Shown piece by piece: positions 51,325 through 54,357 of a DNA stretch of 64,000 bases. Each line of letters opens with the position of its first letter. Position 1 is the stretch's first letter. A program made the position numbers and the translations under genes. The notes under the pieces were generated by a model. That model made no database searches. It was not told the DNA's origin and was given only the letters and a program-made list of their open reading frames with translations. Source of the DNA: Pseudomonadota bacterium (GTDB lineage: Bacteria > Desulfobacterota > Desulfarculia > Desulfarculales > Desulfarculaceae); contig JAHIND010000004.1 in the NCBI GenBank assembly GCA_018896025.1, positions 66,512 through 130,511 on the forward strand, read 5' to 3'.

Positions 51325-51960
51325 CTAGCGCAGGGCCGCGGCCAAGGCGTTCCTGGTGCGGTTGGCCACCGCGTGCACCGTGGTGCCAGCGATGGTGCCC
51401 AGGCGCCCGCGCCACCACTGCACGGCCTGCTCCAGAGCCTTAAGAGCCGCCGCGCTGTCTTCTCCCTCGGCAATGCGAAAAGCAGCCTCGACTCGCTGGA
51501 TGAACTCCAGGGCGCTCTTGTCGGCGGCTTTACCCAAGTCGTTGCCTCCGGCCATTTGACGAGCCAGATCCTGGTCTTCCCAAGCCCGCAAATCCAGGGA
51601 GCCCGCCTGACCGGCCAGACCGCCGAGGGTCAGGGTTTCCAACAACTGGTTGGTTTCGTAGCTCACCATCTTGAGCAGCATTTCTTGGGCACTTTGCACC
51701 TGCGCTTTTATCACAGACGTAACTATTTCGGTTATGCCCGACTTCACCGCATCCCAATAAGCGGCATTCTGTTCTGACAAACCATACTCTGCCAACAAGG
51801 GGCGCAACTTGTGCGAGGCCGCATCGGCCGCATTGCAAAGCAGGCCGGTGACGCGGGGCTCCCAGCGCTCCCGAAAGCGGAAGGTCTGGACCGCGAGCCC
51901 TTCTTGAATCATTAAGTCAAAATAGAGCGCTATGTCTCTCGCCGCCTGCTCCATGGTCAT
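51325..51960 (-). CDS. Hypothetical helical protein resembling the N-terminal half of a MuF/SPP1-gp7 head morphogenesis protein
   Basis: CAGGAGG RBS; ends RLGTIAGTTVHAVANRTR, resembling the R..TIARTE...A.N helix that precedes the Cys motifs in MuF. Confidence 0.5.
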   Translation of the reverse strand: MTMEQAARDIALYFDLMIQEGLAVQTFRFRERWEPRVTGLLCNAADAASHKLRPLLAEYGLSEQNAAYWDAVKSGITEIVTSVIKAQVQSAQEMLLKMVSYETNQLLETLTLGGLAGQAGSLDLRAWEDQDLARQMAGGNDLGKAADKSALEFIQRVEAAFRIAEGEDSAAALKALEQAVQWWRGRLGTIAGTTVHAVANRTRNALAAALR

Positions 51961-52034
51961 CCTCCTGGTTGCCTGCCTTTAGTCGCTCATAAGGAACTTT
52001 CGATCAAACCTCGTTGTCCTAGGCTGCCTTGCGA

Positions 52035-52298
52035 CTAGCTTTTGCCAAACGTTAAAAAAGCGAACAGTACCCACATGATGAAAGCCAGCGGGAAGGAAGG
52101 CCAAACCCACCAAAGTTTCAACGGTCTTCTGGTCCGGAAGACAAACATCAAAACCACGCAAATGGTCCACAGGAGGGGAGCGGGCCAATAGGGCCATTCA
52201 ACCCAAAAAGCCCCAAATAATGAGAACCCATCCGCCACGGTAAATATGCCTATAGCCCAGGCGGCCAAACCGAAATAGATGTCAATGTTTTTACGCAT
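52035..52298 (-). CDS. Trp-rich 3-TM paralog 5 (putative immunity protein), 87 aa
   Basis: MRKNIDIYFGLAAW...PLLWTICVVLM...KLWWVWPSFPLAF; G-rich RBS. Confidence 0.8.
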   Translation of the reverse strand: MRKNIDIYFGLAAWAIGIFTVADGFSLFGAFWVEWPYWPAPLLWTICVVLMFVFRTRRPLKLWWVWPSFPLAFIMWVLFAFLTFGKS

Positions 52299-52313
52299 GT
52301 GCCCCATCCACCA

Positions 52314-52583
52314 TTAGGCTATTTTTTTCCCAAACATCATAATGGCGAACAGCACCCACATGACAAAAGCCAGCGGGAATGAGGGCCAGACCCACCAAAG
52401 CTTCAGCGGTCTTCTGTTACGGAAAACGAACATCAACACCACACACAGAGTCCATAAAGCGGGGGCGGGCCAAGAGGCCCAGTAAACTGCGTATCCTCCC
52501 AAAGAATAGAATCCCGCGACAAAGGTGAAAATCCCAACAGCCCAGGCGGCCAAGCCGAAAAAAATGTCGATGTTTTTGCGCAT
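52314..52583 (-). CDS. Trp-rich 3-TM paralog 4 (putative immunity protein), 89 aa
   Basis: MRKNIDIFFGLAAW...PALWTLCVVLM...KLWWVWPSFPLAF. Confidence 0.8.
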   Translation of the reverse strand: MRKNIDIFFGLAAWAVGIFTFVAGFYSLGGYAVYWASWPAPALWTLCVVLMFVFRNRRPLKLWWVWPSFPLAFVMWVLFAIMMFGKKIA

Positions 52584-52605
52584 GTGCCCCCCAATCATCT
52601 CGAGG

Positions 52606-52869
52606 TTAATACCCTCCTAGGAATAACACTGCAAAAGACACCCACAAGATGAAAGCCAACGGGAAGGAGGGCCAGACCCACCAAAGTTTTATCGGCCTTC
52701 TATTGCTAACAACAAACATTAGCACCGCGCACAAAGTCCACAAACTTGGAGCCACCCACTCCATCCAAGTGAAGCGAAATTTCCAGAAAGGCCAAAACGC
52801 CGCCATCACGGCCAATAGGCCCACCAGCCAGGCGGCCAGGCCGAAAAAAACGTCCAGGTTTTTGCGCAT
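52606..52869 (-). CDS. Trp-rich 3-TM paralog 3 (candidate cognate immunity protein), 87 aa
   Basis: Starts 10 nt after the toxin stop; MRKNLDVFFGLAAW...KLWWVWPSFPLAF. Confidence 0.8.
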   Translation of the reverse strand: MRKNLDVFFGLAAWLVGLLAVMAAFWPFWKFRFTWMEWVAPSLWTLCAVLMFVVSNRRPIKLWWVWPSFPLAFILWVSFAVLFLGGY

Positions 52870-52878
52870 GTGCCCCCC

Positions 52879-53529
52879 CTACTTCGAAGGCTGATAAAGG
52901 CCTGGATAGACAAAATTCCGAAATTGCCTTCCCCACACTCGCAATTTGAATAACCATATCGCTAATCTTCTATAGTCCGTTGCATCTTCCACACTATCCG
53001 GCGGATTTCGCCACATGCGGGGATCGTCGGACAATGACTGCAAGTTATTAATTAACTCCCTATCGCAATAATCTGCATCAAACAATTCGTAGCAATCATC
53101 ATGTCCGGAACAGGCGGCGTCCAAATCATCCGCCGGGCTGGGATCGGCTGCACCTTTCGCGGATGAATCTCGTGTGTCCCGACCGGCCGACCAATACTTG
53201 CCGCACCATTTTTGGTACACAGGCCCATCGAGCAAGCCTCGGCCATTGTTCTTCCAATAACCACCGCCAGCTTTATCTCCCCCCTCGATAAAACCGGGCT
53301 TGCCATCCTGGCTCTCAAACTCCACCGTGGTGGCGGTGATGGGCTCGGTGTGGCAGCGGCAGTTAGGATGTAGCGGCGGGGTGGGCATTTCCGCCGTGGA
53401 TAACTGCCCTGCCTGGGGTTGAAAGTAAAACTCCTTTTCATGCCAGCGGGCGCACTGCTCGCAACCGCTACCCGGTCGGCTGCTCAACCATCGGAACCCC
53501 ACCACCTTGACTTGAGTCTTGGATGCCAC
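52879..53529 (-). CDS. MuF C-terminal motif fused to a secretory-type phospholipase A2 domain (putative toxin), 216 aa
   Basis: GGGAGG RBS + GTG 53529; GFRW...CEQC...PPLHPNCRC then YQKWCG...PADDLDAACSGHDDCY...YCDREL. Confidence 0.8.
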   Translation of the reverse strand: MASKTQVKVVGFRWLSSRPGSGCEQCARWHEKEFYFQPQAGQLSTAEMPTPPLHPNCRCHTEPITATTVEFESQDGKPGFIEGGDKAGGGYWKNNGRGLLDGPVYQKWCGKYWSAGRDTRDSSAKGAADPSPADDLDAACSGHDDCYELFDADYCDRELINNLQSLSDDPRMWRNPPDSVEDATDYRRLAIWLFKLRVWGRQFRNFVYPGLYQPSK

Positions 53530-53650
53530 CGCGCACCTCCCATCCCAGCAGAGTCGGCCTGGAGGCGGGGCACCCCTCACGGCGTGCGTCGCCCCTTTTC
53601 ATGCGAAGCAGTGTGGCCCAACTAGCGGCTGCGGCCCAGGGATAGAGCAC

Positions 53651-53682
53651 AAAAAAGTGCCCCCTCGGAAGAGGCACTTTTT
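53651..53682. terminator. Bidirectional intrinsic terminator between paralogs 1-2 and the toxin gene
   Basis: AAAAAGTGCC / GGCACTTTTT inverted repeat with A/T tails on both sides. Confidence 0.75.
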
Positions 53683-53789
53683 ACCGGTGTGAGCGAGATG
53701 GCCAGGGACCTTGTTGGCCTTCGGGGCTACCGCCCCACAACCAAACCTTCACCATCGGTCTGGGCAGTTTAATACGACATGGCAGATGG

Positions 53790-54071
53790 TCAATGCCCAC
53801 CGCCACCTCTGCTCATTCCAATCAGCATGATTGCTAACATCACATACACCATAAAGGCCAGCGGGAAGGAGAGCCAAACCCAGCAAAGCTTCAAGGGCCT
53901 TCTGGTGCTGAAAACGAACATGAGGACCACGCAGATGGTCCACAAAAGGGGAGCTGGCCAGTAAGGCCAGATGGCCCAGTGAAGGTGCACATAGGAAAAA
54001 CCGTCCAGCACGGTGATGATCCCCACCGCCCAGGCGGCTAGACCGAAAAAGATGTCCAGGTTCTTGCGCAT
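53790..54071 (-). CDS. Trp-rich 3-TM paralog 2 (putative orphan immunity protein), 93 aa
   Basis: MRKNLDIFFGLAAW...KLCWVWLSFPLAF. Confidence 0.8.
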   Translation of the reverse strand: MRKNLDIFFGLAAWAVGIITVLDGFSYVHLHWAIWPYWPAPLLWTICVVLMFVFSTRRPLKLCWVWLSFPLAFMVYVMLAIMLIGMSRGGGGH

Positions 54072-54093
54072 TATCACCCCGGTCGGCGGCAGG

Positions 54094-54357
54094 CTAAGAG
54101 AGCCGCGCCGCAAGGACGAACAACGTAACAAGCAACAAAAAGGCCAGAGGGAAAGAGGGCCAAACCCACCACAGGGTTTTCAGCCTGCGCTTGCTGACCG
54201 AATACATCGCAACCACGCACAAGACCCATAAACACGGCCCTCCCCACAGCTCCCAATGGAACCAAATTCTCCCAAGGGGAAAGAACGACGCTATGGCGGT
54301 TGATATGCCCACCAGCCAGGCGGCCAGGCCGAAAAATATGTCCAGGTTTTTGCGCAT
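54094..54357 (-). CDS. Trp-rich 3-TM paralog 1 (putative orphan immunity protein), 87 aa
   Basis: MRKNLDIFFGLAAW...TLWWVWPSFPLAF. Confidence 0.8.
   Translation of the reverse strand: MRKNLDIFFGLAAWLVGISTAIASFFPLGRIWFHWELWGGPCLWVLCVVAMYSVSKRRLKTLWWVWPSFPLAFLLLVTLFVLAARLS

Follow-up and report, generated by a model that had tools for sequence, protein, structure and literature searches.

A phage-free chromosomal cassette of a Desulfarculaceae-like bacterium with a split MuF domain, a phospholipase A2-like putative toxin and an array of membrane paralogs

Introduction

MuF toxins have been described as confined to temperate phages and prophages: of the bacterial muf genes, 96% lie in prophages or their remnants, and the toxin forms are found mainly in Firmicutes (Jamet et al. 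2017, PMC5576092). So far two members have been characterised, Apk2 and Bxa, each a single-chain protein encoded in a prophage head module (PMC11699363). What, then, is a MuF motif doing in front of a lipase-like domain in a chromosomal region without phage genes? The question is raised by a cassette of seven genes, all co-oriented on the minus strand, that spans positions 51325-54357 of a 64,000-nucleotide stretch of DNA (hereafter the window; contig JAHIND010000004.1 of assembly GCA_018896025.1, positions 66,512 to 130,511) from a groundwater-metagenome Desulfarculaceae-like (Desulfarculus-like) organism. Read from 54357 to 51325, the cassette consists of paralogs A and B, a terminator, a gene for a 216-aa protein (the putative toxin, called the toxin below), paralogs C, D and E, and a gene for an all-helical protein (Table 1).

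Full-text literature searches returned nothing on a split MuF domain or on a MuF toxin with a phospholipase A2 (PLA2). We show in silico that one phage MuF (SPP1 gp7 / Mu gpF) head-protein domain is divided between the helical protein and residues 1-66 of the toxin. Comparative evidence from the PLA2-like domain, its relatives in Rhs proteins and the membrane paralogs suggests that the cassette is probably a chromosomal toxin-immunity system of the polymorphic-toxin kind, with a PLA2 toxin and membrane immunity.

Results

Two genes encode the halves of one MuF domain

On its own, the toxin scored 17.1 bits against Pfam Phage_Mu_F (PF04233; cut-off 29.6), with profile positions 60-111 of 112 aligned, and E=0.012 against TIGR01641 (SPP1 gp7). 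The helical protein alone gave no Phage_Mu_F match, and neither it nor the paralogs had any significant match in Pfam, NCBIfam, PHROGs or PADLOC. The helical protein carries an invariant C-terminal motif, R..L.TIA.TTVHAVANR, which corresponds to the 'IARTE...N' helix that opens PF04233, and because of this resemblance the two proteins were joined in silico. The joined chain of the window scored 33.4 bits in a single stretch over positions 11-111, of which positions 11 to ~59 are supplied by the helical protein and 60-111 by the toxin N-terminus. Scores of 44.7 bits (L004), 33.9 bits (P0025 with P0008) and 34.1 bits (P0023 with P0007) were obtained for other natural pairs joined in the same way, compared to 19.0-23.4 bits for the controls (four shuffled, one reversed, one in the wrong order). 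The curated cut-off was passed by all four joined natural pairs, which are independent of one another, and by none of the six controls, and it was the join alone that passed it; the split MuF proposed in the first-pass annotation of this DNA is thereby borne out.

The same picture emerges from alignments and models. Across the junction, from residue 51 of the helical protein to residue ~72 of the toxin, the alignment to PHROG head-morphogenesis families is collinear. According to the alignment with canonical MuF proteins from the profile search, the split lies within the loop that connects the ARTE-like helix to the '(F/L)xW(V/L)(S/A)' strand, and no segment was lost there. An AlphaFold2 (AF2) model of the joined chain, built from an unpaired alignment that included canonical MuF proteins, had a predicted local distance difference test score (pLDDT) of 83.8 and 41 BFVD matches at E<=1e-3; the top named matches were nearly all MuF, head-morphogenesis or minor-capsid proteins (two were annotated as portal), aligned over 260-310 columns with a target-normalised TM-score of at most 0.66. 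The HPNCRC motif (toxin residues 54-59) is unchanged across 13 of 13 homologues and is followed, after a linker of ~25 residues, by the PLA2-like domain. A separate observation concerns L079, in which the toxin (5025-5726) has HSNCRC in place of HPNCRC, which may be a natural variant or an assembly error.

The split is not peculiar to the window. The toxin gene starts with GTG, has a GGGAGG Shine-Dalgarno sequence 5' of it, and encodes a product identical to database protein P0001; the homologues of the helical protein begin at the second ATG of the window gene. Split point, toxin start position, Shine-Dalgarno sequence and gene order are all kept in L004, at 42% toxin identity and in another genomic context. 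It should be noted that a complete single-chain MuF domain N-terminal to the toxin, as in MuF polymorphic toxins, is not present in this cassette.

As a candidate explanation of the split, we considered a programmed excision or circularisation that would fuse the MuF halves, and rejected it: the only direct or inverted repeats flanking the unit are the paralogs themselves. No 51325-to-53529 junction was found in the assembled contigs from four groundwater runs, a weak negative as it covers contigs only; the one joint in them was between two paralogs (53961 to 52239, see below).

The toxin carries a PLA2-like domain

The AF2 model of the toxin (pLDDT 80) had rice secretory PLA2 (2wg7/2wg8/2wg9) as its six best fold matches in the PDB, with probabilities of 0.89-1.0 and target-normalised TM-scores of 0.42-0.63; the same structures also lead the list for the fused model. 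When a profile of 13 homologues was compared to the PDB, 41 of 42 matches, all of them weak, were secretory PLA2, aligned at the catalytic helix P.DDLD.C..HD.CY and corresponding to secretory PLA2 residues ~36-64. In the toxin this helix reads PADDLDAACSGH143D144DCY, with H143 and D144 conserved in at least 90% of homologues. A candidate Ca2+ loop is provided by the glycine-rich segment W108-C-G110-K-Y-W-S-A-G116, in which G110 and G116 are invariant and whose counterpart in Rhs relatives is NWGGK.WSGG. Fold match, catalytic helix and glycine loop thus agree with the PLA2 assignment of the first-pass annotation, with all sequence scores below the curated cut-offs (see Discussion), and the toxin's C-terminal domain is PLA2-like, with a predicted phospholipase activity.

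The motif of Tox-PLA2 (Zhang et al. 2012) is matched in part: C140-x-x-H143-x-x-x-Y147 is present, and the following Asn and DxC[ST] are absent. PF09056, the prokaryotic PLA2 family, gave no match at E<=1, and 1kp4 was not among the fold matches. Since the motif is partial, PF09056 does not match, and the best folds are those of plant secretory PLA2 rather than 1kp4, the domain probably belongs to a distinct PLA2 clade.

The same domain forms the tip of Rhs proteins

A profile search of 1.84 billion representative proteins returned 576 relatives. The short architecture of a C-terminal MuF half followed by PLA2 accounts for ~45 clusters at 50% identity. Many other relatives match only profile positions 90-197, and do so at the very C-terminal end of long proteins (700-1650 aa). 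Nine of these long proteins were checked; eight have RHS repeats or an RHS core (five also DUF6531), and the ninth has the immunoglobulin-like Big_7 instead. In the Rhs examples the PLA2-like domain begins right past the DPxGL core motif, and its consensus there is GR..DGP.NGNWGGK.WSGG...P.D..D.C..HD.CY...CD..L...L..DP..WP.PP. One toxin domain is therefore found on differing trafficking modules, as is typical of polymorphic toxins, and judging by these relationships the PLA2-like domain is predicted to be a genuine toxin warhead common to Rhs and MuF systems.

Many of the Rhs loci also have a candidate membrane partner. In ~25 of 40 Rhs-PLA2 loci from named genomes (L014-L053), the next gene encodes a protein of 93-100 aa with three transmembrane (3-TM) segments, often with a 4-bp overlap. 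In a distant PLA2 lineage (28-30% identity), the protein encoded in this position has 125 aa and four predicted TM helices (L085, 616-993; L086, 6348-6725), and it may be a third type of membrane partner. As to the Rhs-linked 3-TM proteins themselves, they are ~95 aa long, share the C-terminal motif GQWWLIE...W..RGFAP and form an apparently uncharacterised family (for example L015, 3151-3432) with hosts among Proteobacteria, Acidobacteria, Nitrospira, Myxococcota and others; in L018 two copies stand in tandem (677-958 and 1257-1550).

The membrane paralogs form a variable array

The five paralogs constitute a direct-repeat family of 285-286 nt with 40-60% protein identity, each having three hydrophobic segments and a Trp content of 8-11%. 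Their positively charged residues are concentrated at the N-terminus and in the loop that links segments two and three, so by the positive-inside rule the N-terminus would be inside and the C-terminus outside. The family comprises 31 database clusters, all from Desulfarculaceae-like sources, and in every context examined the paralogs either have a toxin homologue next to them or occupy the same chromosomal site.

The paralog directly downstream of the toxin varies with the toxin. Seven toxin variants are followed by seven different first-downstream paralog types, and the ~94%-identical toxins of the window, L079 and L080 have a common first-downstream type (95-99% identity). Conversely, the paralog in the second position (D) is 95-96% identical between loci with toxins that are only 68% identical, which indicates that D is uncoupled from the window toxin. 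The Spearman p-values for the co-variation of toxins and paralogs serve as a rough guide at most, since the pairs compared are not independent. From these comparisons, paralog C is likely to be the cognate immunity protein, and paralogs A, B, D and E are predicted to be non-cognate ('orphan') immunity proteins. Paralog A is orthologous to the first paralog of L007 and of L011.

At the same chromosomal site, the arrays of close relatives differ in number, order and chimeras; L013 and L055 both carry chimeric paralogs. We also noted a groundwater contig from run X5 that joins paralog B to paralog E (53961 to 52239), a chimera in a related strain.

Related loci and selection

A metagenome scan for the cassette yielded eight loci. 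Gene content differs among the related loci, with all gene absences confirmed by tblastn within 10 kb. The window and L054 have two paralogs, the toxin, three paralogs and the helical gene; L007 has three paralogs, the toxin, two paralogs and the helical gene. L001 has the toxin with two paralogs, and Desulfarculus baarsii DSM 2075 (L009, CP002085) has the toxin with four paralogs (Deba_3136-3139), both lacking the helical gene. L011 has five paralogs and the helical gene with no toxin, and L013 has one chimeric paralog only. L004, in another genomic context, has the toxin, two divergent paralogs and a 252-aa helical homologue. Orphan or poly-immunity arrays, including a toxin-less one, are a known trait of polymorphic toxins and are seen here in the five paralogs of the window, in L011 and in L013. 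The first-pass annotation had counted paralog arrays without a toxin gene against the toxin-immunity interpretation; such an array does exist (L011, at the same chromosomal site), and we read it as orphan immunity. Two further genes were recorded near these loci: directly upstream of the D. baarsii toxin gene lies a divergent 931-aa HEAT-repeat-like protein without a Pfam match (L009, 5699-8494, minus strand), and an IS481-family transposase (L056, 11308-12249, minus strand), the only mobile-element gene near any locus, lies ~4.5 kb downstream of the cassette.

All parts of the cassette are under purifying selection. The ratio of nonsynonymous to synonymous substitution rates (dN/dS) was 0.12-0.24 for the helical gene and 0.06-0.14 for the C-terminal MuF half, and in the PLA2 core it was 0.04. 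Among close relatives, the same gene pairs gave a dS of 0.24-0.59 in the C-terminal MuF half, whereas the PLA2 core had near-saturated values of 1.6-2.9, which are 3-9 times higher. The last ~38 residues of the toxin are hypervariable (dN 0.24-0.78 between close relatives), and the helix that they form is a candidate membrane-contact or immunity-specificity determinant. An abrupt boundary between a conserved N-terminal and a variable C-terminal part is a hallmark of polymorphic toxins, and the jump in dS, the constrained core and the hypervariable tail together form the pattern expected of exchanged C-terminal cassettes.

These rates also bear on the alternative that the cassette is a decaying prophage fragment, or an orphan toxin cassette without current function, in which the split is a broken muf gene. 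Such decay would be compatible with the loss of the toxin in some relatives and with the resemblance of a half MuF domain in front of a toxin to the 'orphan' C-terminal modules of contact-dependent inhibition (CDI) and Rhs loci. We find decay hardly credible: dN/dS is low in all three parts, ~45 clusters have the same short architecture, and at identities as low as 42%, in different genomic surroundings, the start, the split point and the Shine-Dalgarno sequence are still conserved.

No phage genes accompany the cassette

Integrase, terminase, portal and capsid families were absent from the Pfam matches of 30 of the larger genes of the window and from the precomputed Pfam annotation of syntenic loci. 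The 30 genes belong to metabolic, transport and regulatory families only, save one 576-aa open reading frame (ORF) without a match. Likewise, no portal, terminase or prophage genes lie within 6-10 kb of about ten related loci. The cassette is thus not situated in a (pro)phage head-morphogenesis module, the usual location of MuF toxins, and the lack of phage context that had been noted for the window extends to its relatives.

These negatives weigh on a reading in which the cassette is a leftover of phage or particle entry: a packaged MuF-PLA2 protein would be ejected with the DNA and breach the membrane as parvovirus capsid PLA2 does, with the paralogs acting in superinfection exclusion. MuF proteins are indeed ejected with phage DNA (PMC5576092), and the PLA2 motifs faintly resemble the viral capsid PLA2 (Phospholip_A2_4, E=0.086). 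Apart from the missing phage genes, however, a scan of 2.9 million viral contigs (IMG/VR) recovered only canonical C-terminal MuF halves and not the PLA2 part, tblastn against 50,697 phage genomes (INPHARED) gave no match to the cassette, and the Rhs-borne homologues are not phage proteins. We consider an entry function very unlikely.

Features of the locus and the rest of the window

The coordinates of the cassette features are collected in Table 1.

Table 1. Features of the cassette and its upstream edge in window coordinates
Feature	Position	Strand	Remarks
Terminator of the upstream aldehyde-oxidoreductase operon	54421..54443	-	upstream cassette edge
Paralog A	54094..54357	-	87-aa Trp-rich membrane protein, three hydrophobic segments; first gene of array
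Paralog B	53790..54071	-	93 aa, same family as A
Intrinsic-terminator-like hairpin and T run	53652..53682	-	15-nt arms, 1-nt loop; between the A-B unit and the toxin unit
Putative toxin gene	52879..53529	-	216 aa; C-terminal MuF half, linker, PLA2-like domain, hypervariable C-terminal helix
Toxin residues 1-66	53332..53529	-	C-terminal half of MuF (PF04233); CxxC...HPNCRC cysteines invariant
Toxin residues ~88-197	52939..53268	-	PLA2-like (putatively catalytic) domain
Toxin residues 179-216	52882..52995	-	hypervariable Trp/Arg-rich C-terminal helix
Paralog C	52606..52869	-	87 aa; start 10 nt past the toxin stop
Paralog D	52314..52583	-	89 aa
Paralog E	52035..52298	-	87 aa
All-helical protein (N-terminal part of MuF)	51325..51960	-	211 aa; 209 aa from the second ATG, 51954

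The co-orientation, gene order and AT-richer composition described in the first-pass annotation are all present. The GC content of the block is 0.50-0.57, compared to 0.62-0.70 in the flanks, and at third codon positions (GC3) it is 0.62-0.73 in the cassette genes, compared to 0.85-0.93 in host genes. A search of the block for structured RNA gave Rfam matches at chance level only. On the upstream side lie an aldehyde/xanthine oxidoreductase gene (Mo-cofactor subunit) and, after it, its terminator. Of the two flanks that had been named, a housekeeping-operon terminator and a porin gene, the terminator stands; the porin is better called a putative outer-membrane beta-barrel gene, as its sole basis is a sub-threshold Porin_2 match (17.5 bits, cut-off 22). 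This downstream gene (50064-51218, plus strand) is apparently a strain-specific insertion, the helical gene directly adjoining an HTH_26 gene in L007, L011 and L056. Its last ~50 nt (51168-51218) are repeated elsewhere in the genome; at this segment contig depth is 2-3 times higher, and the assemblies from the four runs examined break there.

Several other genes of the window deserve mention. The 576-aa ORF without a Pfam match (E<=1e-5) lies at 24226-25956 (plus strand), has a host-like GC3 of 0.82 and adjoins the only tRNA gene of the window, tRNA-Ala (24072-24147, minus strand). A Fic/DOC-family gene with a GC3 of 0.60 (61087-62229, plus strand) lies inside a Fer4/DUF362/ABC operon region that is conserved. 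The window, L013 and L054 have the gene, L007 and L011 lack it at this place, and it resembles a second strain-variable insertion. A baeRF family-10 protein (40058-41185, plus strand) and an NYN-domain RNase (42724-43482, minus strand) are encoded a few kb apart; baeRF proteins are bacterial homologues of archaeo-eukaryotic release factors, and their domain is typical of conflict systems.

Discussion

Proposed mechanism

The toxin-immunity interpretation put forward in the first-pass annotation gains comparative support from three sides: (i) the occurrence of the warhead on Rhs proteins together with a 3-TM partner; (ii) the variable, chimeric and toxin-less arrays; and (iii) the contrast in dS along the toxin. 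On these sequence comparisons, we consider it probable that the cassette is a chromosomal toxin-immunity system of the polymorphic-toxin kind with a PLA2 toxin, membrane immunity and a split MuF domain. The 216-aa protein would be a PLA2-type lipase that hydrolyses membrane phospholipids of unprotected cells, and the three-helix paralogs, presumably in the inner membrane, would neutralise the lipase at the membrane. Paralog C would protect against the window toxin and the other four against variants from related strains, with specificity set by the variable C-terminal helix of the toxin and the variable first loop of the paralogs. The two MuF halves would most likely re-associate non-covalently into a complete MuF module. 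The weakest step is speculative: the module might act as a handle for delivery, perhaps by capsid-like particles encoded elsewhere in the genome. As a tentative extension, a two-piece MuF toxin that re-assembles and rides helper-phage capsids, gene transfer agent (GTA)-like capsids or some other route, countered by strain-specific 3-TM immunity, seems to us a doubtful proposition; if true, the cassette would be a toxin 'satellite' borne by capsids and the first case of a MuF toxin detached from its phage.

Several observations weigh against the toxin-immunity interpretation or parts of it. The PLA2 Pfam scores are sub-threshold: 19.3 bits for PF00068 (cut-off 32.1) and 13 for PF05826 (cut-off 22). 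The joined chain was fused by us and canonical MuF proteins were in its alignment, so that the model leans toward a MuF-like result. Two toxin loci, L001 and L009, lack the helical gene, and the toxin-less L011 keeps it under purifying selection; the gene is therefore neither strictly required by the toxin nor strictly tied to it. Homology of the window paralogs to the Rhs-linked 3-TM proteins was examined and rejected (hhalign probability 1%), so the support from Rhs loci is by analogy, a recurrence of kind and not of family. Among the 150 best of the 576 profile matches, every short protein led by the C-terminal MuF half carries PLA2, and other warheads occur only on full-length canonical MuF proteins; the alternative toxin domains on the same N-terminus for which a search had been proposed did not appear, and 'polymorphic' here refers to PLA2 sequence variants only. 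Finally, the toxin lacks every known kind of export handle, be it a signal peptide, PAAR or Rhs, and it has no hydrophobic segment (maximum Kyte-Doolittle 19-residue mean 0.42); with secretion or particle genes absent within 10-40 kb, there is no evident path by which it could get to other cells.

The last point favours a different reading, an abortive-infection or toxin-antitoxin-like defence in which the MuF halves, as mimics of a phage head protein, would sense phage portal or packaging and release the PLA2 on the host membrane, with the paralogs restraining the lipase until then. The toxin would need neither an export signal nor delivery machinery nearby, the cassette lies in a low-GC3 island, and interaction of MuF with phage portals is established (PMC5576092). 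However, none of the PADLOC defence models matches, the same domain is an Rhs warhead, and the toxin-less arrays, one-paralog remnants, shuffling and variant-specific first paralogs fit inter-strain toxin-immunity better; we regard defence as unlikely and retain a toxin-immunity system as the preferred reading.

Comparison with known systems

The arrangement of a split MuF domain, PLA2 and membrane paralogs without a prophage is not described for the MuF toxin family, whose mode of action in general is still unclear. The comparison defines, as a prediction, an antibacterial warhead of PLA2 type that Rhs and MuF systems have in common, and by analogy at least two, probably three, unrelated small polytopic membrane families appear to serve as immunity to it. 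Since Desulfarculus baarsii DSM 2075 is cultured and carries the paralogs with an adjacent toxin gene, the system is experimentally reachable.

Membrane-embedded immunity, in the form of small polytopic proteins, serves membrane-acting toxins such as pore-forming colicins and membrane-targeting effectors of type VI secretion systems (T6SS). The T6SS phospholipase effectors Tle1-5 with their Tli proteins also combine antibacterial attack on membrane lipids with an adjacent immunity gene; Tle are GXSXG or phospholipase D (PLD) enzymes, and Tli are periplasmic proteins or lipoproteins. Unlike the window toxin, Tle do not have the PLA2 fold, and no sequence relation between the two was found. Rhs PLA2 toxins (for example P0083, P0092, P0120; L014-L053) share the homologous catalytic domain and the ~95-aa 3-TM protein directly after it, whereas they have Rhs repeats with the DPxGL core, more cysteine, and an unrelated 3-TM partner, usually in one copy and not in an array. 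Tox-PLA2 (PMC3482391; 1kp4, PF09056) is likewise a PLA2-fold lipase used as a polymorphic-toxin warhead; the window toxin differs in having HxxxY but not the Asn, in matching plant secretory PLA2 best, and in its lack of a PF09056 match. Zhang et al. 2012 (PMC3482391) described MuF as a phage-head trafficking module and the 1kp4-like Tox-PLA2 on Rhs and filamentous proteins, with no immunity protein assigned.

The closest known systems are the MuF toxins (PMC5576092), in which MuF1 (PF04233) ends in a HPNCRC-type motif and is followed by a C-terminal toxin and by small downstream ORFs as immunity genes, including poly-immunity arrays; phospholipases are named in that paper only in the reference list and not in the main text. 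The cassette differs from them in that MuF is split over two genes, with the C-terminal half and toxin first and the N-terminal half last, after the immunity genes; in the lack of a portal, terminase or prophage nearby; in its host, a Desulfarculaceae deltaproteobacterium and not a member of Firmicutes or Bacteroidales; and in its lipase-type warhead and integral-membrane putative immunity proteins. The cassette resembles a MuF polymorphic toxin but lacks two of the defining features, the single-chain MuF domain and the prophage context; with a MuF module freed of its phage and kept as two conserved genes, it offers a natural experiment on the role of each half and on the action of MuF in trans.

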